DNA of 62,628 bases from an uncultured Candidatus Saccharibacteria bacterium (GCA_964641545.1 CAZXLT010000004.1:1-62628); one strand, 5' to 3'; shown: positions 50,476 through 62,628, counted from the stretch's first letter. The notes: generated by a model not told the origin, from the letters alone. Made by a program: numbers and translations.

Positions 50476-50550
50476 GGCCTCATCTTCTAACGGTTAGGAA
50501 TCCGGGTTTTCATCCCGGCAATAGGGGTTCGATTCCCCTTGAGGTCACCA
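50476..50550 (+). tRNA. tRNA-Glu (anticodon TTC)
   Basis: Acceptor GGCCTCA/TGAGGTC, anticodon arm CCGGG-TT TTC AT-CCCGG, T-arm GGTTCGATTCC, encoded CCA. Confidence 0.93.
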
Positions 50551-52225
50551 TAAGGGAATTATTAGCTCTAAGGAGCGCAAATATCGGATTCACCCCTGTA
50601 AAAAGGGGTGTTTTTTGTGTTCCAGAATTTATATCATCGTAACTGGGTGCTTTATCGAATAACGCGGCGAAAAACAGTGCTTTTTTAACCGGATCAATCT
50701 GTTTTAGTAATAATTCGTCGAGGTGTTCGACAAAATATTTGACGCGCGCCAGGACTCGGTCAATCGGAACGGGTTTCTTAGCCTCTAGTTCCACTTTCCG
50801 AGCCTCAAGCTCATTAACTTGCTGTTCGATCCTCATAAGATCCTCCTCCATGTATTTAATTGCTGTACTGCTTGAAAGCATTCTAAGTTTGTCTAACGCT
50901 AGTGTTGCTTGGCCTTGCAAATCAGAAACCTTGGCATCAATTGATTCAATTTGCATCTTGTATGATGCATTGGACTTCTCCCAAGATGCTTCAATGATCT
51001 TAAACAAGGCATCAAGCTTATCCGGTGCGATAGTTAAACCAGAAACAAACTCTGCAACCCTAGTTTCTAAATCTTCTTTAGTCACTCTGAAGTAGTGGCC
51101 ACGCTTGTTGCAGTGATATGCCGGATAGTATTTGCCACTCTTGCCCCGTGAGGCGCTGCCTAGCAGCGGTTTGTTACATTGTGGACACATAATGACCTTT
51201 CGGTATGCAAAGTCGCCGTTTCGACGACCCTTGTTTGCTAGATGTTCTGGAGGTGCCTTGTCGAATACGTAGACTTTGTTATTAACACCCTCTACGATTG
51301 TTCGTTTGCCACCGTTCGCTTTATTAAACGCTTCTACAGACACTAAACCTTTAAAGACACACTTAACCGGCTCGTTGTTAGTCCACTTTTCCATATTCAC
51401 ACCTGCATAAATAGGATTACGGACTAACCGCCATAAGTGCTTGGATGTCAGTTTTGTGCCACCTACTTTTTTAACAACTTTGCTCGTATCAGTCTTACTA
51501 CGTATGTATTTAATGCGACCCTGATATCCGCTCTCATTGAGCATCTTGGCTATTTGGCCATCACTATATTTGCCAAGTGCTCGGAGCTCAAACATACGAA
51601 TTATAAACTTAGATTCTTCAGGGTGAGGGACAAGGATTGTTCGTTTACCGTTTTGAGTGTCTATTTTTTCACTCATAAATCCAAAAGGCGCCTGTCGCAT
51701 CCAGTAACCCATTTGGGTGTAGCGGATTTCGGCACCGATCATACGACTCATAATATCTCGAAGTTCGTCTTTGGATCGTTCAGCTTCAAGAATCTCGGAC
51801 TTTTTACTAGGCGAGTACACACTCCACTTATACTCGAAGCCGAGGTGATCGAGTGTATTAACTGTCTGTGAACTTATTACACCGTAAATGTCTATGAGAC
51901 GTACATTGTTTGCCTCTAACTGGTTTTTAAGAAGGTCATACGACAGTGAACCACCACGGGTAAATCGATCGATCGACTTGATAATAAATAAATCTATTCC
52001 ATTCTTTGGGTCTACGCAGTAATCGATAGCTTCTTGCATCGGTTGCTGTTCCTTACTGGCTGACTCTAGGAATACAAAGAATTTTTTAATTGTGATGCCT
52101 TTATTCTCGGCAAATCGCTCAGCTTGTTCTTTTTGGGCTTCTGGGGAATCACCATCAGTACCTTGCTTTGTAGTCGATACACGAATAGCGACAACGGCAT
52201 TCGTGCCTTTTACGCTGTCTTGCAT
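50510..52225 (-). CDS. Large serine recombinase (resolvase + recombinase + zinc-ribbon + coiled coil)
   Basis: AIRVSTTKQ (catalytic Ser), SIDRFTR, APFGF, NPIYAG, CPQC...YHC; the C-terminus reads antisense through tRNA-Glu. Confidence 0.9.
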   Translation of the reverse strand: MQDSVKGTNAVVAIRVSTTKQGTDGDSPEAQKEQAERFAENKGITIKKFFVFLESASKEQQPMQEAIDYCVDPKNGIDLFIIKSIDRFTRGGSLSYDLLKNQLEANNVRLIDIYGVISSQTVNTLDHLGFEYKWSVYSPSKKSEILEAERSKDELRDIMSRMIGAEIRYTQMGYWMRQAPFGFMSEKIDTQNGKRTILVPHPEESKFIIRMFELRALGKYSDGQIAKMLNESGYQGRIKYIRSKTDTSKVVKKVGGTKLTSKHLWRLVRNPIYAGVNMEKWTNNEPVKCVFKGLVSVEAFNKANGGKRTIVEGVNNKVYVFDKAPPEHLANKGRRNGDFAYRKVIMCPQCNKPLLGSASRGKSGKYYPAYHCNKRGHYFRVTKEDLETRVAEFVSGLTIAPDKLDALFKIIEASWEKSNASYKMQIESIDAKVSDLQGQATLALDKLRMLSSSTAIKYMEEDLMRIEQQVNELEARKVELEAKKPVPIDRVLARVKYFVEHLDELLLKQIDPVKKALFFAALFDKAPSYDDINSGTQKTPLFTGVNPIFALLRANNSLMVTSRGIEPLLPG

Positions 52226-53368: not shown

Positions 53369-54529
53369 TCAAACTTTGTTTTTAAATGTAGATCGGTAAA
53401 TGAAATATACTGGCAACAAACAGATATTACAGACCAATATGGATACACTCGGACTAAATCGGTCGGCAAGATAACCCGCAAAAACTAGGAAGACTGCTAA
53501 AAGTACACTAGTTACAAGTGAGTTGAGCGAGTCCATTGTTGCCCTTTGAGCGTCGGTGAACTCCTGATGTATTAGGTGCTGTTTAGCAGTATCTGTTGGT
53601 CCATAGGGAGCGCCGTGGAGCATCATGACAAACGGTGATGCAGCCGACGACAGGATCAAGGCGACAAACGAAACGATCCGCGAGAAGATCTCGCCGGCTA
53701 GGATAATAGTCGACGACTTGAATCGCTTCATAAACCGGTCACTGTTCTTGAAGCCAATGGTGCTCCAAATGTAGTTAGCAGAAAGCAAGCTGCCAACCCA
53801 AGAAAGTGGTACATATTGTCGGTAATATGCGGGCATCATGTTCCAGGACGCCCCACCAACACTTCCACTCAGGATTGAAGCAATGCTCAACATTCGCAAG
53901 TGTGTATTCTTTTTGTAGTATCGGTAAACATCGCCTAGGTGACTAAACACGTTGCCAGAAAGTGGTGAATGCCTGGGAGGCTCAATCATAGTGAATGTCA
54001 CCAGCACTGCCAGTGCCTGTGGCACGACCGAGATCCAAAGCACCAAGATGTAGGAGATCGAAGCCAACATCGTTCCTGCAATGGCCGAAATAATGCCCCC
54101 AACCTCAAGAGCAATGTTAGTCTTGCTGTAGTGACTATGAAAGTCATCTTTTACTCCAGCAGACCGAGCCGAGTCGTAGATGAGCGCGTTATTGTTACCA
54201 CTAAACAAGGCGAAGCTTAAACCCTGCATCGCTGCACCAACCAGCAGGATCCAGTAATTGGTTGTCGTGGCATAGATTAGCAGCCCAGCTAAGCTAGCCA
54301 GGGCACCGGCTTGCATACTAACAACTCGGCCAATACGATCAGACACAACACCGGTTGGAATCTCTAATACCGCCTGAGAAATTTGGACGAACGCCCAAAC
54401 ACTAGTACCTTTAGCGAATGAATTTAAGACATGCGAAAGATACAGCACCAGCACAATGTAGTAGGGCTGTACATTTGAAAGAAAGGTAAATCGGAACAAT
54501 GCCCCCATATTGTGTTTCAGTAAGTTCAT
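53369..54529 (-). CDS. MFS transporter
   Basis: LEIPTGVVSDRIGR motif A, FALFSGNNNALIYDS, RATMDS; about 12 TM. Confidence 0.9.
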   Translation of the reverse strand: MNLLKHNMGALFRFTFLSNVQPYYIVLVLYLSHVLNSFAKGTSVWAFVQISQAVLEIPTGVVSDRIGRVVSMQAGALASLAGLLIYATTTNYWILLVGAAMQGLSFALFSGNNNALIYDSARSAGVKDDFHSHYSKTNIALEVGGIISAIAGTMLASISYILVLWISVVPQALAVLVTFTMIEPPRHSPLSGNVFSHLGDVYRYYKKNTHLRMLSIASILSGSVGGASWNMMPAYYRQYVPLSWVGSLLSANYIWSTIGFKNSDRFMKRFKSSTIILAGEIFSRIVSFVALILSSAASPFVMMLHGAPYGPTDTAKQHLIHQEFTDAQRATMDSLNSLVTSVLLAVFLVFAGYLADRFSPSVSILVCNICLLPVYFIYRSTFKNKV

Positions 54530-55989
54530 AGTTTTAGTTCCTTGGTCGGTTTCAATTTCTTAGCAAAGTATTTGTCATGCGATGCAAACAAGATTGCACC
54601 GCGGTACTGCTGCAAGGCTGTTTCTATCTGTTCCCTTGTTGGAATATCCAGATGGTTGGTTGGCTCGTCCAGAATCAACAAATGGTGTGAGGCAAGCAGT
54701 AACTTTGCAAATCCAAGCTTTGCCTGCTGGCCACGAGATAGTTCGCTGACCTGTTTGTTCAGATCGTTTTTGGTAAGACCTAGGCTGCGGGCTTCGCGAA
54801 AGATGTTGGTCATCTGTGCTTCAGTTGCAGTTAAGTTCTCTAGCCCTGTCGAATCATGGTCTAGACCATCTACATCCTGAGAGAAATAGCCAACACTAAT
54901 ACCAGTTCCAAAAGTGACTTCACCTCTGTCGGCTTGGTTTCTACCTGCAGCAATTGTTAGTAGGGTTGTCTTGCCACTGCCGTTCTGTCCTTGGGTGTGA
55001 ATACGTTCACCCCCTCGAACTTCAAGGTCAACGTTCGAGAGCACTGGCTCCGGAAATCCCTTATATATTCCGTTTAATCGCAATACCAACTTATTACTAT
55101 CTACTTCACCACCAAGTACAATACGGTAGTCTTTGGCGAATTCGGGTCTTTCTATCTCGTCTAGTTGGCCTAGTCGCTTTTCTAATGCTCGTGCTTGCTG
55201 GCCAAACTTGTTAGTTACTCTGTTTCTAAAGAAATCTCGTTGGTACTTGTCGCCGTCGGATCGTTTGATGTGTTCGTGGGTGTGCTTTCCTTTTTCTCTT
55301 TGATCTCGGATTGCTTTGGTTAGTTGGTTGCGCTCATCGACATTCTGTTGGTAGCGTGCTCGTACGGCTGCTTCTTCTAGCTCTTTCTGTTCACGGTAGA
55401 AATCGTAATCTCCTCCATACTGGGTTAGCCTGCCGTTATGTAGCTCAGCAATTTTAGTTGCCGTGCTGTTAACAAACGTCCGGTCGTGACTAACTAACAA
55501 CACAGATCCGTCGTAAGTACTGATGAAGCCCTCTAGCCAATCTAGACCAGCGGCATCTAAGTTATTGGTAGGCTCGTCCAGAAGCAACAAAGACGGTTCG
55601 GGGTCTTGAGCCAAGACCACAGCAAAAGCTAGCCGAGTCTTTTGGCCGCCGCTTAATGTGCTTACGGCAGTACTCTGTTTTTTAGAACCTAGGCCAATCC
55701 TTTCTAGGGCGTAGTTAATCTGCCACGACTGAGCCGTAGCCGAAAAGCTTTCAGCGATTGTTTTCCCAAGTACTGCTTCCTGTGGGACATAGCCAATAAC
55801 ACCAGTGGCTTGAACGCTTCCGGAATCTGGCTTTAGTACTCCTCTTAGAATCTCCAATAGAGTTGTCTTACCAGCTCCGTTTTCGCCAATTAGAGCAACC
55901 ACCTCACCATGGTTAATGGCCAAGTTGACATCCTCAAGGACTGATTTGTTCGGGAATGATTTGTATATATGACGTAAGTTAAATGCCAT
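54526..55989 (-). CDS. ABC-F family ATPase (ribosome-associated; possible ribosomal protection protein)
   Basis: Two ABC cassettes (GENGAGKTT/LSGGQ/LLDEPTNNLD; GQNGSGKTT/LSRGQ/LDEPTNHLD), no TM, long interdomain linker; SD GGAGG before ATG 55989. Confidence 0.9.
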   Translation of the reverse strand: MAFNLRHIYKSFPNKSVLEDVNLAINHGEVVALIGENGAGKTTLLEILRGVLKPDSGSVQATGVIGYVPQEAVLGKTIAESFSATAQSWQINYALERIGLGSKKQSTAVSTLSGGQKTRLAFAVVLAQDPEPSLLLLDEPTNNLDAAGLDWLEGFISTYDGSVLLVSHDRTFVNSTATKIAELHNGRLTQYGGDYDFYREQKELEEAAVRARYQQNVDERNQLTKAIRDQREKGKHTHEHIKRSDGDKYQRDFFRNRVTNKFGQQARALEKRLGQLDEIERPEFAKDYRIVLGGEVDSNKLVLRLNGIYKGFPEPVLSNVDLEVRGGERIHTQGQNGSGKTTLLTIAAGRNQADRGEVTFGTGISVGYFSQDVDGLDHDSTGLENLTATEAQMTNIFREARSLGLTKNDLNKQVSELSRGQQAKLGFAKLLLASHHLLILDEPTNHLDIPTREQIETALQQYRGAILFASHDKYFAKKLKPTKELKL

Positions 55990-56006
55990 TACTTTATCCT
56001 CCAAAT

Positions 56007-56149
56007 AGAAAAACCGAGCAGGCAGACAAATGTCACGCACGCTCGGTTTTCAGAAGTTAGGTAATGAAATCAAATCAATAGCAAAGCTACGCCGTTAGCG
56101 TGACATCTTTAGCTGTTGATTAGATCTATCATTGGTATACAAACTCCTT
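56007..56149 (-). promoter_or_regulatory. Ribosome-dependent transcription attenuator of the ABC-F gene
   Basis: SD AAGGAG (56149-56144), leader ORF MIDLINS* (56132-56109), antiterminator 9-bp pair 56098-56106/56030-56038, terminator stem 56041-56050/56010-56019 with U-tract. Confidence 0.75.
56109..56132 (-). CDS. Leader peptide MIDLINS
   Basis: ATG ATA GAT CTA ATC AAC AGC TAA downstream of an SD, upstream of the attenuator hairpins. Confidence 0.55.
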   Translation of the reverse strand: MIDLINS

Positions 56150-56161
56150 TAAGTTTCCGCA

Positions 56162-56190
56162 ATAATAGCATAACCGATACTGCTTGTCAA
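56162..56190 (-). promoter_or_regulatory. sigma70 promoter of the ABC-F/MFS operon
   Basis: TTGACA-17 bp-TATTAT with extended TG. Confidence 0.85.
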
Positions 56191-56232: not shown

Positions 56233-56272
56233 CTTGTCTACTTGATCAGCGCTAAGTCAGGTTCTTTACTCT
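56233..56272 (-). repeat. Diverged copy of the 3' end of the VirD4-like gene (second copy at 59544-59583)
   Basis: 36/40 identity; both copies encode SKEPDLALIK*. Confidence 0.88.
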
Positions 56273-56497: not shown

Positions 56498-57012
56498 TAA
56501 TCTATTCTTATTACTCCAATTAGAGCCTGAGTTTTTTTCGTTGGGTCTTTAAAGGTAAAGCCATCTTCTTTAATGTCGTCACGCCCCTCATAGCGATGAA
56601 GCACTTCTTGCATTTGATTGGCGTCGTAAATGGTAAGTATATCTATCCTCACTGCGCGACCATGGAAACCTAACGCACTATGGTAAAAACCATATACTAC
56701 GTCGGCAAATATAGAGCTACCCTCGGTGACGGTATGTGGAAAGGCGAAAAGATCAATGTGTTTGCCTTCAACATTTTCATAGCGATCACCTTTGCGAGTT
56801 GAATCATATCGATCAGTACCGGTTGTTTTAATGATATTGATCAACTCATCCACTGTCTTGCCGGTGTGTTCTGAGGAAGCTACGCCACGAACGAGAATTG
56901 ATTTGCCCATAAAGTTTTCTTTTATTACTGCGTCCACGATTTTACCCAGCGCCTCATGGTCGGGAACAATATCAACTGTGTATTGTGGCAAATCCAAGTT
57001 AAGAAGCTTCAT
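56497..57012 (-). CDS. Hypothetical protein
   Basis: 171-aa ORF in a tightly coupled operon. Confidence 0.75.
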   Translation of the reverse strand: MKLLNLDLPQYTVDIVPDHEALGKIVDAVIKENFMGKSILVRGVASSEHTGKTVDELINIIKTTGTDRYDSTRKGDRYENVEGKHIDLFAFPHTVTEGSSIFADVVYGFYHSALGFHGRAVRIDILTIYDANQMQEVLHRYEGRDDIKEDGFTFKDPTKKTQALIGVIRID

Positions 57013-57496
57013 ACGACAACTCTTGAATCTGTTTAGCTAAGTCTTTAACCGATCGATTACCATCAATAACTAGATCAATAAGCCCGCCCTTTTGTAGGCG
57101 TTTGAAAGTATCAAGCTGAAGTTTCAGCCATGGAGATGCGTCCTGATAGTTTTCAATACTCATTCGATTGTTATTTCTCTCGGCTAGCTGTTCGATCGTG
57201 AGATCTAAGAGAATAATTTTAAATCCTTTATCTCGCGCCTCTTTGATCAGCTCGTCAGGTACATAGCTTGCAAAGTACACTACTTGGGGTCGAGAAATGA
57301 TTTCTTTGGTTGTCTGGGGAACAAGAATCTCATTCTTCAACTTATCATCAGGCCAGACATCATTGTTGGCCTTCATAACTTCCTCATCAGTCTCAGCAAT
57401 GTTGAGCTTAGTATGTTCGCGTAAATACCTCATAAGTGTGGATTTGCCACCAGCAGAGGGGGCCAAGATAAGTAGTTTTTTTGTCTTGATCATCAA
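56999..57496 (-). CDS. Small P-loop kinase-like protein
   Basis: LILAPSAGGKST Walker A, IILLD..IEQLAERN, LVIDGNRSV. Confidence 0.75.
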   Translation of the reverse strand: MMIKTKKLLILAPSAGGKSTLMRYLREHTKLNIAETDEEVMKANNDVWPDDKLKNEILVPQTTKEIISRPQVVYFASYVPDELIKEARDKGFKIILLDLTIEQLAERNNNRMSIENYQDASPWLKLQLDTFKRLQKGGLIDLVIDGNRSVKDLAKQIQELSYEAS

Positions 57497-59507: not shown

Positions 59508-59548
59508 ATCTGTAATTATACCTCAGAATAATCTTTTCGGTAACTTGT

Positions 59549-62155
59549 CTACTTGATCAGTGCCAAGTCTGGTTCTTTGCTCTGTCGCTTAGTTGCATTC
59601 GTCTTTTTTACCAGGGTTAGTTCGTCTTTTGGTTTCATTGGTTTTTCTGGCTGAACTTTAATTCCATATTCCTTGCGAGAGTGGTTAATTGCAGCATTAG
59701 CCACCTCACCACTTCCTTCACTATCAAGAAGGACTGTAACGCCGGACATTGGCTCCTGGGCATTAACAGCAGCAATTCTCGCATAGAAACTATACGCCGG
59801 TAAGTTGGCAATTTCTCCTTGCTCCAAATATCTATTGAACAATGGCAATATCAAACGTTCGTCTGACGGACTTCCTGATCGAAAACATATAACCGTCCCG
59901 ACGTTCGCCAGAATAATATCAACAAGTCTTTGCTGATCCTGCTGACTGGTAGATTGTTCTGCCATGGTCAGGTATAACTTATACTTCCTAGCTTCAGACA
60001 GCATCTGTACAAAACTCATCGTCGCAAAGTTTTGAAACTCATCCACATATAAGAAGAATGGCTGGCGACCGGACTGTTTTTGTCGTGCTCGACGAAGTGC
60101 GGCCACCTGCAACTTTGCTAATACAGTCGTACCAAATAACGCTGAGGTATCTTCGCCAAGTAAACCTTTCGAAAAGTTACAAATTAAGATCTTGCCCGAG
60201 TCGAGGATGTTATCAAAGTCGATGGTCGACTTTTCTTGCTCAAGGATTCGCTTTGCAGATGCAGAGAATAGAAACCGGCCAATCTTAGCTGTAATACCGG
60301 CTGACATTTTGACTCTTTGAAACTCACCAGCCTTACCTAGCTCGTTACTCCAAAAGTTCTTTAAGTCTTCGTCCTCTAAGTTTTTTACCGTGTTTCGACG
60401 AAACTTCGCGTCGTTAAGCAGTCGGAAAATAGTAAAGAGTGTAGCGCCTTCTAGCGTTAATGCGGTTTGGATTGAGTTACGTAAAACATACTCAATTCGG
60501 TGGCCTCCACTATCGTCTTCGGAGAATATCTTTCGTAGTACGGAAATCGTTGACTCGGTTATTAAGTCTTTCTCGCGAAGTAACTCGTCGCCCGTTAGGC
60601 TAGGATCAAGTTCAAGTAAGTTAACGCCAATTGGGTGAGCAAGATCATCGGGGTTCAAGTAGATGACGTCCTTGATTCGTTCCTTGGGCAGGTGGTGCAG
60701 GATCGTTTCCGCCAAGTCACCGTGAGGATCAAGCACTGCAAGACCTTTGCCGCTATTAATATCCTGCATGATTCCGAATAGCAGCATTGTTGTCTTACCA
60801 TTACCTGTACCACCAATAATGTACACATGGCGTTCTCGCTCAGCCAACGATAGCCCAACAGGAGTAACACTACCATGGTGTTGGTTTTCTCCCAGTACAA
60901 TATCCAGCTTTGCACCATTTTTGAGTGAAACAGGTGCGGGCAGTGTTTTACTGAGAGACTTCACAACGTTTTCAGTCTTCGCACCGATTGAGTGTGGGAA
61001 GTGGAATAAACTGGACACTTCGCTAGCGGCTAAAATGTTAGAGTTCTTTGTAAGCGTTTCGGGCATACGATTCACAAAACTAAAATGTTGGAGCTGTCGC
61101 ATGCGCTTGGTACGGACACGTTTAATTTCCAGTGCCTGATATTTTGCCACAGAATAAGATGACAGTGCCGACACAACGCCATGCAATCTCTGCTTCATTT
61201 CGGCGCTACTATTAACTTTTATTGCTGCTCGGATTTCAACACGGAACAATGGTTGGCTTAGTTTATGGTGAATTGACTCGATCAGCTCTTGCTCAAACTT
61301 GCTTATAGTTCGAGCTGGCTTCACACCTTGGATGACTTGTTTCTGGTGGTACAGATCGCGTTGCAACATCTGGTTGCCATCATTCGATGCCCCGTGATTC
61401 ATATAGGTAATAGTGTTTGTAATGGCAGATAAAATATTACCGATGGATTTTATGACTAGTCCACCAACAGATTTCCGGGATGAGTTATGTAGATGTGCTC
61501 TTACATCTTCGTTGGTTAGGATCTTGTTGCCTAGAGTGTACGCTTCAGCAACTTTGACAGGAACTGCTACGAGTTGGAAAGCCATTAGCTCTTCTGGTTC
61601 AAGCTGAGTCATAGTATTGGCAAGATATGCAATCGGGTCATGAGCAGACAAACTATCTACTTCGTGCAATGGATAGGCGAAATGTTCCTTTTGTCTAAAT
61701 GTGACTGTTTTAGCTGAATTAAGATTCGCTACATAGTCCTCTGTTTTTCTCACCTTAACGTCAGGTAGGTAGGCGTGAATAGTGTGCTTAAAAACTGTAG
61801 CCTGATCATCCGGGACACGTGCCAAAAAGCGAATACCATGCTCCCGCGTAGAAACAATCTCAAGTGACACGACTGAGTCACGACGTAGTAATCGATCAAG
61901 GAATGGTTTACTTGAGCCAAGACCATGAAGTACTGCAAACAACTCTTGGGTTGCTTGTGGTGTTCTGTCATCGAAAGCTGGTGGTGTTAGCTCAAAGATC
62001 GTGTATGACTCATGGAAAATGTGCCGAATATTGAGAATCCTCACGATGCCTTTGGTCACCCACGCAATGATAAAGATCAGCAGCAACATTAATCCTATCC
62101 AAGGCAAAAGTCCTGCAAAATTCTTTAGCCAATCAACTATGTGAAGCGGATTCAT
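59549..62155 (-). CDS. VirD4/TraG/HerA-like coupling ATPase with N-terminal TM
   Basis: RERHVYIIGGTGNGKTT, LDPHGDLA, KILICNFSKG, FFLYVDEFQNF, EARKYKL, LANVGTVICFR. Confidence 0.88.
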   Translation of the reverse strand: MNPLHIVDWLKNFAGLLPWIGLMLLLIFIIAWVTKGIVRILNIRHIFHESYTIFELTPPAFDDRTPQATQELFAVLHGLGSSKPFLDRLLRRDSVVSLEIVSTREHGIRFLARVPDDQATVFKHTIHAYLPDVKVRKTEDYVANLNSAKTVTFRQKEHFAYPLHEVDSLSAHDPIAYLANTMTQLEPEELMAFQLVAVPVKVAEAYTLGNKILTNEDVRAHLHNSSRKSVGGLVIKSIGNILSAITNTITYMNHGASNDGNQMLQRDLYHQKQVIQGVKPARTISKFEQELIESIHHKLSQPLFRVEIRAAIKVNSSAEMKQRLHGVVSALSSYSVAKYQALEIKRVRTKRMRQLQHFSFVNRMPETLTKNSNILAASEVSSLFHFPHSIGAKTENVVKSLSKTLPAPVSLKNGAKLDIVLGENQHHGSVTPVGLSLAERERHVYIIGGTGNGKTTMLLFGIMQDINSGKGLAVLDPHGDLAETILHHLPKERIKDVIYLNPDDLAHPIGVNLLELDPSLTGDELLREKDLITESTISVLRKIFSEDDSGGHRIEYVLRNSIQTALTLEGATLFTIFRLLNDAKFRRNTVKNLEDEDLKNFWSNELGKAGEFQRVKMSAGITAKIGRFLFSASAKRILEQEKSTIDFDNILDSGKILICNFSKGLLGEDTSALFGTTVLAKLQVAALRRARQKQSGRQPFFLYVDEFQNFATMSFVQMLSEARKYKLYLTMAEQSTSQQDQQRLVDIILANVGTVICFRSGSPSDERLILPLFNRYLEQGEIANLPAYSFYARIAAVNAQEPMSGVTVLLDSEGSGEVANAAINHSRKEYGIKVQPEKPMKPKDELTLVKKTNATKRQSKEPDLALIK

Positions 62156-62622
62156 TGACTAGCTCCAAGTGCTGGCTTGGCATTCAGATCTAGCCAAGGC
62201 ACGATTTGTTGTTCATGGATGAAGTTATACTTTGTCGCGTCAGATGCCTTTAGAGTGCGACTACTCTGTATATCCCAGCCGACCCAGTTCATCTCCGAAA
62301 TGGTCCATTCTCCAGTAATAGGATTAACACTTTCTACATATGCCACGTGTCCTTCTTTGCCGGCAGTCGTCTGCATTATTGCGCCCGCGCTCGGTGTATG
62401 ATCTACGAGATAATTCATTTTCTGAGCCCGTTCTGCCCAAGTGTTAGCATTACCCCAAGTGTTTGGGATCGCACTACCGACTTGTAGTCGTCGAAGTGCC
62501 GCCCAGTAAGTGCACCAACCATAGTCATATGTCACCTGCGCATTGGCTGGCTGATCAAAAAGGCTGAAGACGCTAAGGGCGTCAACATTGGCAACTGAAA
62601 TGAAAACTACAATAGGCATCAT
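62152..62622 (-). CDS. CHAP-domain cell-wall hydrolase (may extend past the window edge)
   Basis: YGWCTYW catalytic Cys, WGNANTW, GHVAYVE catalytic His, ISEMN. Confidence 0.88.
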   Translation of the reverse strand: MMPIVVFISVANVDALSVFSLFDQPANAQVTYDYGWCTYWAALRRLQVGSAIPNTWGNANTWAERAQKMNYLVDHTPSAGAIMQTTAGKEGHVAYVESVNPITGEWTISEMNWVGWDIQSSRTLKASDATKYNFIHEQQIVPWLDLNAKPALGASQ

Positions 62623-62628
62623 AGTCAG

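Follow-up and report, generated by a model that had tools for sequence, protein, structure and literature searches.

The stretch of DNA analysed here, a window of 62,628 nucleotides (nt) from an uncultured Candidatus Saccharibacteria bacterium (GCA_964641545.1, CAZXLT010000004.1:1-62628), carries in the region 53369-56190 a two-gene operon preceded by a leader RNA, all of whose elements, like the operon itself, are encoded by the minus strand. The promoter-proximal gene (54526-55989) encodes a 487-residue ATPase of the ABC-F family (P0001), identified by its Pfam domains, its motifs, a structural model and its place in a tree. The second gene (53369-54529) encodes a 386-residue transporter of the major facilitator superfamily (MFS; P0002) with a Pfam MFS_1 domain. 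Its start overlaps the stop of the ABC-F gene in an ATGA (54529-54526), which suggests that the two genes are translationally coupled. The ATG at 55989 was taken as the start of the ABC-F gene; the GTG at 56040, which figures in the open reading frame (ORF) list, was rejected. A first inspection of this locus, hereafter the sequence-only reading, had described in order a promoter, a Shine-Dalgarno (SD) sequence, a leader ORF encoding MIDLINS, a 9-mer, a terminator, a second SD sequence and the ABC-F gene, and each of these elements is indeed present where it had been placed. We consider it likely that a ribosome-dependent attenuator, both transcriptional and translational, drives here the expression of an ABC-F protein resembling the antibiotic-resistance members of the family (ARE) together with an MFS transporter, on an island resembling an integrative and conjugative element (ICE) in a Saccharibacteria genome. 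The cassette would thus probably be of the inducible resistance type. This view is built on the sequence elements, their conservation and covariation, a predicted fold that depends on the position of the ribosome, the architecture of the protein, a patchy distribution and the borders of the island, all established here, and it is more secure for the attenuator than for the resistance function.

Transcription would start near position 56155, from a sigma-70-type promoter (56162-56190) that matches the consensus at 11 of 12 positions and has an extended -10 element (TG-n-TATTAT). The TTGACA lies at 56190-56185 and, within and after a 17-nt spacer, the TG at 56170-56169 and the TATTAT at 56167-56162. 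The compact leader, about 150 nt long, contains a seven-codon upstream ORF (uORF) encoding MIDLINS (56109-56132; AUG AUA GAU CUA AUC AAC AGC UAA, with the ATG at 56132 and the TAA at 56111-56109), whose own SD, AAAGGAG (56144-56150), stands 11 nt before the AUG. Codons 3 to 8 of the uORF make up the 5' arm of a hairpin of about 70 nt and about -20 kcal/mol, called hairpin A (56062-56133), in which the uORF pairs with CUUUGCUAUUGAUUUGAUUUCAUU; at its apex, a mini-hairpin (ACGCU/GGCGU) ties up the 3' half of a segment designated a, AGAUGUCACGC (56098-56108), that begins 1 nt past the uORF stop codon. An anti-SD element, AACUUCU (56052-56058), is found directly 5' of the intrinsic terminator (56005-56050), and its partner in folds of the free leader is the SD of the uORF. 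The terminator consists of a basal stem (AAAACCGAGC/GCUCGGUUUU), an apical stem and a U-tract (56013-56009), the arm AAAACCGAGC at 56050-56041 pairing with GCTCGGTTTT at 56019-56010, immediately before the U-tract. The 5' side of the apical stem is formed by a segment a', GCGUGACAUUU (56028-56038), the predicted 3' strand of an antiterminator of which a would be the 5' strand, so that hairpin A would act as an anti-antiterminator. The SD of the ABC-F gene, GGAGG (55998-56002), recognized from its sequence and its pairing with the anti-SD element, comes last. The leader ORF with its SD thus lies between the promoter and an intrinsic terminator, itself upstream of the ABC-F gene.

The 9-mer singled out by the sequence-only reading, ATGTCACGC (56106-56098), is the exact reverse complement of GCGTGACAT (56038-56030), and the pairing grows to 11 bp when G-U pairs are admitted (56108-56098 with 56038-56028). 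The same 9-mer is also found at the apex of hairpin A. The terminator was correctly recognized from its hairpin and U-tract, but the complement of the 9-mer does not lie in a loop, as had been thought, since the interior of the hairpin folds as an apical stem. Without the pairs formed by the U-tract, the full hairpin reaches -17.4 kcal/mol, the basal stem alone -7.8. As deduced from folding and covariation, the antiterminator would compete with this apical stem, in agreement with the idea of alternative pairings. Strict mutual exclusion, which had also been proposed, lacks support, as the G+C-rich basal arm stays uncovered. A 176-nt leader sequence folds better than each of 200 shuffled versions (z -3.7). 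Nevertheless, the 9-bp complementarity, when taken from this single sequence alone, is only suggestive, because a perfect inverted repeat of at least 9 nt arises in 5.8% of leader shuffles. It might then be argued that the inverted repeat arose by chance close to an ordinary terminator and has no regulatory role. This explanation can be given almost no credence, being refuted by the conservation and covariation found in leaders that precede ABC-F genes whose products are just 54-60% identical, as well as unrelated cargo genes.

The related loci were collected from genome searches, one metagenome pattern scan and a covariance model (R1). At about 25 of them, a promoter-uORF-hairpin-terminator leader precedes an ABC-F homologue, with compensatory changes. 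The shared layout comprises a TTGACA-17-TAnnAT promoter, an SD, a uORF of 7 to 8 codons, hairpin A, a terminator whose apex is structured, and the main SD. The TTGACA-17-TA(A/T)TAT sequence and the upstream TG are kept in all related leaders, while the DNA 5' of the promoter differs from locus to locus. The related uORFs read MIDLIN[SRC], (M)IDIINS, MIVIINR, MRGIINS, MTTTIN[SR], MISINS, MIRIAR[AV]K and MAGNIRVK. In an alignment of 16 leaders (A3), pairing is preserved in 95% of the cells corresponding to hairpin A and the terminator, compared to 31-46% in slid controls. Compensatory changes occur at 9 pairs of these two structures, giving a covariation score that none of 500 shuffles attained; the structure used in this test was derived from one of the 16 sequences. 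When RNAalifold was applied to a MAFFT alignment of all the leaders, the terminator alone was recovered, hairpin A being misaligned between clades, and 12 pairs of the terminator basal stem proved conserved, 4 of them with compensatory changes. For the a:a' helix, column-wise counting was dropped, since bulges shift the register between leader types, and the energies of cognate and non-cognate duplexes were used instead. In every one of the 11 leader types, the a:a' duplex has an energy between -18 and -22 kcal/mol (z -2.7 to -6.5 relative to shuffles), and cognate partners reach -19.5 kcal/mol on average, compared to -13.2 for non-cognate ones. The segments themselves vary from one leader type to another, as illustrated by AUGUCACGC/GCGUGACAU and GUUGCC(U)GCACG/CGUGCGGCAAC, and further by GUAGUCGCAC/GUGCGACUAC and CCGCACAAG/CUUGUGCGG. 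Taken across leader types, these comparisons rule out a pairing due to chance. A search of Rfam with the leader matched no family.

How the pairings respond to translation was explored by folding the nascent RNA of seven lineages, ended before the 3' arm of the terminator is made, with a ribosome footprint placed codon by codon. In six of the seven, the same alternation is predicted. When no ribosome is present, hairpin A forms and a' folds on itself; when a ribosome is centred on codons 1 to 4/5 of the uORF, the minimum-energy fold contains the long-range a:a' helix; and when it stands anywhere from codon 6 to the stop codon, segment a is covered and no a:a' helix is seen. The alternative pairing therefore depends, in these folds, on where the ribosome is. 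Since a:a' forms just with a ribosome on codons 1 to 5, the design would signal that a ribosome has been arrested on the first codons of the uORF. Formation of a:a' costs the terminator 9.6 of its 17.4 kcal/mol and leaves as a remnant a 6-bp GC stem that closes a structured loop of 21 nt. In full-length mRNA, the anti-SD AACUUCU pairs with the ABC-F SD across the folded terminator, and each of the eight lineages folded shows an equivalent pairing, between a CUUC-type anti-SD on the 5' side of the terminator and the main-gene SD on its 3' side. Because these two elements flank the terminator and pair, the folded terminator is predicted to clamp the ribosome-binding site, which would add translational attenuation as a second layer of control.

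The following sequence of events may be proposed. As long as the uORF is translated and the ribosome released, or is left unoccupied, hairpin A would form and conceal segment a, the complete terminator would fold, and RNA polymerase would halt at the U-tract; in any RNA resulting from read-through, the folded terminator would place the anti-SD AACUUCU on the SD of the ABC-F gene. Lincosamides, pleuromutilins and streptogramin A are drugs of the peptidyl-transferase centre that arrest ribosomes right after initiation. A ribosome arrested with any of codons 1 to 5 of the uORF in its P site would melt the 5' arm of hairpin A while leaving a uncovered, and a would capture a' upon transcription of the latter. 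The terminator would then lose its apical stem, the anti-SD:SD clamp would fail to assemble, and the ABC-F protein, together with the translationally coupled MFS transporter, would be produced. The ABC-F protein would most likely bind the ribosomal E site, from where its long linker could dislodge the drug, and the MFS transporter may export it. Drugs of the peptidyl-transferase centre are the favoured class of inducers because the stall window lies early in the uORF. Drug-induced stalling, antitermination in vivo, resistance and the class of drug are all points that we infer from the sequences.

A number of observations weigh against this reading of the operon, some of them bearing on the switch and others, to which we return with the protein, on the resistance function. 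Equilibrium folds of the full-length leader keep the terminator despite a ribosome on the uORF, which implies that the switch must be kinetic. In one lineage (L110), a:a' is predicted even without a ribosome, and in another relative (L144) the uORF has no AUG (…AUA AUU AAU AGU UAA). Furthermore, a:a' leaves the G+C-rich 5' arm of the terminator uncovered, a' being confined to the apical part. One may therefore ask whether a:a' is in fact part of a pseudoknot with the basal terminator stem, control being exerted mainly at the translational level by the conserved clamp, or whether the structure has a role in RNA stability or processing. Loops of 2 nt and 8-10 nt across 11 bp would permit an H-type pseudoknot, which appears sterically allowed, and for CplR it has been found that translational attenuation alone is enough for repression (bioRxiv 10.1101/2022.12.05.519065). 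However, a' overlaps the apical stem, so that forming a:a' must cost the terminator about 10 kcal/mol and leave a remnant that is a poor terminator; moreover, in six of the seven lineages a:a' is seen in the ribosome-stalled state only. We thus regard the pseudoknot explanation as quite unlikely, and keep to an antiterminator that competes with the terminator apex.

The arrangement deduced here is best appreciated by comparison with known ARE leaders. Several ARE-ABCF genes are induced by stalling of the ribosome on very short uORFs, MIN for VmlR, MAGN for LsaA and MRI for CplR; this early-arrest logic has been described for the vmlR, cplR, vmlR2 and lsaA leaders, and in the case of CplR and VmlR transcriptional and translational attenuation act together (bioRxiv 10.1101/2022.12.05.519065). 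As in vmlR of Bacillus subtilis (ARE2, MIN) and cplR of Clostridioides difficile (ARE1, MRI), the leader has a very short uORF within a 5' hairpin, followed by a terminator. Those two genes are induced by pleuromutilins, lincosamides and streptogramins A (PLSA) through post-initiation arrest, and their main SD is sequestered (bioRxiv 10.1101/2022.12.05.519065), the dual attenuation being common to them and to the layout predicted here. Unlike theirs, the uORF has 7 to 8 codons with a productive window of codons 1 to 5; the antiterminator joins a segment located past the stop codon to the apex of the terminator and not to its 5' arm; and the main SD is located beyond the terminator, on the opposite side of which a distinct anti-SD clamps it. 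The leader shares neither sequence similarity nor an Rfam family with those of vmlR and cplR, and the ABC-F protein belongs to a different clade. With LsaA of Enterococcus faecalis (ARE3), the resemblance lies in the protein, which gives the best structural superposition (TM-scores, template-modelling scores, of 0.81/0.80), has a similar size (about 490-500 residues) and likewise lacks a C-terminal extension. In addition, the LsaA uORF consensus MAGN recurs in MAGNIRVK, the uORF of one relative (L109). Membership of the Lsa family is nevertheless not indicated, the Lsa model giving P0001 210 bits where 750 are required, with a tree that contained no Lsa reference. A third point of comparison is the mef(A)/msr(D) macrolide operon of streptococci, in which an MFS pump and an ABC-F protein are also encoded in one attenuated, leader-controlled operon carried by mobile elements. 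The gene order differs, the ABC-F gene coming first here; the MFS transporter has no Mef match, the ABC-F stands apart from the Vga/Msr clade, and MIDLINS contains no macrolide-arrest motif of the Arg/Lys-x-Arg/Lys type. This motif (+x+) was considered as a clue to the inducer and set aside: among the related uORFs it occurs in MIRIARAK, at codons 6-8, where a stalled ribosome would cover a.

The leader is also found in front of genes other than those of ABC-F proteins. Covariance model R1 detects one copy in the genome under study and matches in 14 of 401 genomes of the class, with almost none elsewhere in the phylum, and several of these matches lie in genomes that lack this ABC-F. In one case (L143, G400:C18), a leader with the uORF MISINS precedes a gene for an AadA/ANT(9)-like nucleotidyltransferase; this leader directly adjoins a tRNA 3' end, and no separate promoter is present between the two. 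The leader whose uORF lacks an AUG (L144, G353:C1) precedes an APH(4)-Ia-like phosphotransferase gene (147 bits), and another, with the uORF MIDTTQ (L149, G143:C9), precedes a gene for a uridine-kinase-like P-loop kinase. On two metagenome contigs (L110, Ga0299914_10421183, and L111, Ga0137457_1024967), a leader with the uORF MTTTINS or MTTTINR, hairpin A, a:a' and the terminator stands before a gene encoding a P-loop kinase of the AAA_33 type, of about 161 residues, instead of an ABC-F. The matches of these cargo enzymes are all distant and below the family cut-offs. Several of the cargo families include enzymes that inactivate ribosome-targeting antibiotics, which suggests that the leader senses translation inhibitors rather than amino-acid supply or general stress; the variety of the cargo is the strongest argument in this direction, albeit an indirect one.

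Sensing of isoleucine by a classical attenuator, responding to the supply of the amino acid or of its tRNA, had to be considered, as the uORFs are rich in isoleucine, with 2 to 3 such codons among 7 to 8 in most leader types and AUA usually as codon 2. Yet none of the cargo genes is for isoleucine biosynthesis or a tRNA synthetase, and MTTTINS, MAGNIRVK and MRGIINS do not follow the isoleucine pattern. The isoleucine codons, moreover, are conserved because they take part in the pairing of hairpin A. This makes isoleucine sensing very improbable. Extending the preferred reading from the operon to the whole set of leaders, one may tentatively propose, though we would give it somewhat less than an even chance, that they constitute a modular family of stalled-ribosome sensors, nearly confined to this class of Saccharibacteria and carried by tRNA-integrated islands and ICEs, which together form an inducible mobile resistome. 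The leader family would be exchanged among cargo of at least five kinds: ABC-F with or without MFS, ANT(9)/AadA-like and APH(4)-like enzymes, and two kinds of P-loop kinases.

That P0001 is an ABC-F protein follows from its domains, its motifs and the structural neighbours of its model in the PDB, which are all ABC-Fs. Pfam ABC_tran is matched in two stretches (172 bits) and ABC_tran_Xtn with 37 bits against a cut-off of 25.9; both sets of Walker A/B, signature and H-loop motifs are intact, and the protein has neither a transmembrane domain nor an arm insertion. Its interdomain linker is long, covering 76 positions of the Pfam linker model with 102 residues; no gap is needed to align it with those of VmlR, VmlR2 and VgaA-LC, and it exceeds those of YheS and Uup by about 25 residues. 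A linker sufficiently extended to reach the peptidyl-transferase centre and an arm that is small or missing are the structural features by which AREs are recognized. In the AlphaFold2 model (mean pLDDT, the predicted local distance difference test, 86.8), the linker forms a helical hairpin of 46 + 30 residues (helices 195-240 and 248-277) with residues 241-247 at its tip. The best two-way TM-scores of this model are obtained with LsaA, Sal(B), VmlR2 and VmlR; EttA gives 0.69-0.73, and Uup, YheS and YbiT likewise fall somewhat below the ARE proteins.

Assignment to a subfamily had been suggested as a check in the sequence-only reading. None of the named ARE families is approached, the scores and cut-offs being 309/725 for Vga, 285/680 for Msr, 268/725 for Sal, 250/780 for CplR, 210/750 for Lsa and 198/1450 for OptrA. 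P0001 is placed outside EttA and Uup as well, in a maximum-likelihood (ML) tree whose references comprised Vga(A)LC, Msr(A/D/E), OptrA, PoxtA, EttA, Uup, VmlR-/VmlR2-like, Sal-like and other proteins, with no Lsa. In this tree the Saccharibacteria ABC-Fs form a single clade (100/99), separate from the Vga/Msr, VmlR, Sal-like, OptrA, PoxtA, EttA and Uup references, the only, weak sisters being two long-branched ABC-Fs, one from Rhizobium and one encoded by a Streptomyces clavuligerus plasmid, where a TetR gene adjoins it. P0001 is thus not to be counted among the vmlR, vga or lsa families, whose control logic the sequence-only reading had invoked. A scan of contigs with an ABC-F alignment was abandoned, generic ABC motifs having yielded 80 unrelated ABC-Fs of about 30% identity, some of which became outgroups of the tree. 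P0001 also passes the cut-off of the NCBIfam model NF000355, 'ribosomal protection-like ABC-F', with 409 bits against 380 in one stretch covering residues 1-480. This model was rejected as an ARE classifier: ABC-Fs of 635-646 residues, whose next-best models are those of EttA and Uup, reach 480-520 bits, and because these longer EttA/Uup-like proteins score higher than P0001, the pass does not separate AREs from housekeeping factors. From its architecture, P0001 is predicted to work like an ARE, most likely conferring resistance from the E site, while belonging to no characterized ARE family.

To the points on the unfavourable side of the balance belong these higher scores of longer proteins on NF000355, the position of the clade outside every characterized ARE subfamily in the tree, and the low identity of plasmid-borne ABC-Fs to P0001, at most 33% in all cases. 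The neighbouring genes in relatives, furthermore, point to no drug class; searched for such a clue, they gave generic matches only, to a methyltransferase, an APH/homoserine-kinase-like protein and a tetracycline destructase-like monooxygenase. Lastly, P0001 is the sole ABC-F in its genome (G000, 934 kb in 29 contigs), where we found no EttA-, Uup-, YbiT- or YheS-type factor and where the next-best ABC matches are ordinary ABC proteins of 595 and 617 residues, so that it may play the part of a general translation factor. The leader would then be a general sensor of translation stress, induced by any slow-down of early elongation, and the ABC-F a housekeeping-type rescue factor such as YfmR, YkpA or EttA. 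Apart from its being alone in the genome and outside the characterized subfamilies, the non-discriminating NF000355 and a fold likeness to EttA, YheS and YbiT that is just slightly lower agree with such a role. A housekeeping factor is, however, hardly expected to be missing from 96% of the class genomes sampled and from 16 of the 26 genomes of the family, or to be carried by a mobile island. The linker has the length found in AREs and the arm is absent, and ANT-like, APH(4)-like and kinase cargo behind the same leader would make no sense as rescue factors. A stress-responsive housekeeping system is for these reasons unlikely, if the least implausible of the alternatives, and an ARE-like function remains the preferred interpretation.

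At a threshold of E <= 1e-80, a close homologue of P0001 is lacking from the majority of the class genomes. ABC-F homologues were found in 10 of the 26 genomes of the family, some with 2 to 3 copies, and in 15 of the 401 genomes sampled across the class. The cassette is thus truly present in a genome of the Candidate Phyla Radiation (CPR), as had been noted with surprise, but it is not a one-off. Public records name the ABC-F homologues Candidatus Saccharibacteria, and some of the relatives are labelled 'macrolide transport system ATP-binding/permease protein' by JGI. We found no literature specific to the ABC-Fs of Saccharibacteria or CPR, and these bacteria are not mentioned in the 2019 survey of the family (PMC6723617). 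In that survey, Murina et al. proposed that uncharacterized, phylum-specific groups (AAF1-6, BAF2/3 and PAF1) are unrecognized AREs (PMC6723617), and the Saccharibacteria clade resembles these groups in being restricted to one lineage.

The MFS transporter reaches 65 bits on Pfam MFS_1 (cut-off 33). Its NCBIfam matches are weak and partial, to TetA(P) with 31 bits and to MdtH with 27 bits, and none is to the Mef family. An MFS gene lies downstream of the ABC-F gene at loci of at least 69% identity whose downstream flank is covered, and is missing in more distant clades.

The location of the operon on a mobile element, put forward in the sequence-only reading, is borne out by 19-bp att repeats on either side of an island that encodes a recombinase and a coupling protein. 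The 3'-terminal 19 nt of a tRNA-Glu gene (ATTCCCCTTGAGGTCACCA; 50532-50550, plus strand) would be the attL core, and an exact copy, the putative attR, is found on another contig (G000:C8:6790-6808, L126), at a place that has no tRNA. Because the tRNA 3'-end repeat recurs exactly where no tRNA stands, we are probably dealing with an element integrated at the 3' end of tRNA-Glu and split over at least two contigs, the repeats being attL and attR. Direct repeats at the borders, one of them inside a tRNA gene, and a recombinase at the border are features of integrative conjugative or mobilizable elements. The large serine recombinase (Resolvase and Recombinase domains; 50510-52225, minus strand) occupies the tRNA-proximal end, and, together with tRNA-Glu and a weak Replic_Relax gene (23.3 bits, under the cut-off of 25.3), flanks the operon on one side. 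On the other side are a gene of the island for a type IV coupling protein of the VirD4/TraG type (59549-62155, minus strand), and, after it, a CHAP-domain gene (62152-62622), shortly before the end of the contig at 62628. The segment C8:1-6789 encodes a type III restriction-modification system (N6_N4 methylase and ResIII) and a PLD-like nuclease. Past the repeat comes a response-regulator gene. Two copies of a 40-nt repeat, identical at 36 of 40 positions, are present at 56233-56272 and 59544-59583; the right copy coincides with the 3' end of the VirD4-like gene and the left one lies just upstream of the leader promoter. Between the VirD4-like gene and the leader, an ORF of 165 codons (56999-57496, minus strand) gives weak matches to P-loop kinase models (AAA_18 18.6 bits, SKI 16 bits), and its product bears a faint similarity to the AAA_33 kinase encoded behind the leader of L110 (31% over 59 residues, E 0.003).

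The surroundings of the cassette in two relatives deserve mention. In a relative of 85% identity (L120; GCA_964536985.1, CAZIBG010000003.1, 3250-14976), the cassette stands beside genes for a class-A-like beta-lactamase, an RND/MMPL pump and an IS1595 transposase, in a cluster that also encodes Replic_Relax, PadR, an S-adenosylmethionine (SAM) methyltransferase, an APH-family kinase and an AAA_33/zeta-like kinase; this cluster looks like a resistance-type island. In another, of 59% identity, it lies beside genes for a TetR protein and a flavin monooxygenase, the latter with a partial tetracycline-destructase match below the cut-off.

The core of what had been claimed for this locus, a leader-ORF attenuator with competing pairings controlling an ARE-like ABC-F + MFS operon on a mobile element in CPR, is supported as far as sequence analysis reaches. 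Attenuation of this kind is established in Firmicutes and Actinobacteria, and the advance therefore lies in breadth and switch design and not in principle: new are the CPR setting, the protein clade, an antiterminator that captures the apex of a terminator, and the reuse of one leader for several types of cargo. Saccharibacteria and other CPR bacteria have tiny genomes, live as obligate epibionts and are difficult to culture and, to our knowledge, almost nothing is known about how they regulate their genes or cope with antibiotics. If the interpretation proposed here is correct, Saccharibacteria carry drug-inducible ribosome protection on conjugative islands, gene control in CPR makes use of a working transcription-translation coupling, and a single sensor RNA serves several resistance-type genes. 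An uncharacterized, phylum-specific ABC-F clade would join the candidates for new resistance factors. With its length of only about 150 nt, the leader is compact, and its logic is directly testable in laboratory hosts. Should the leaders form a modular family, they would share an antiterminator of an unusual kind which, rather than the 5' arm of the terminator, captures its apex, and the resistome that they control might guard these ultrasmall epibionts from translation inhibitors produced by their actinobacterial hosts or neighbours.

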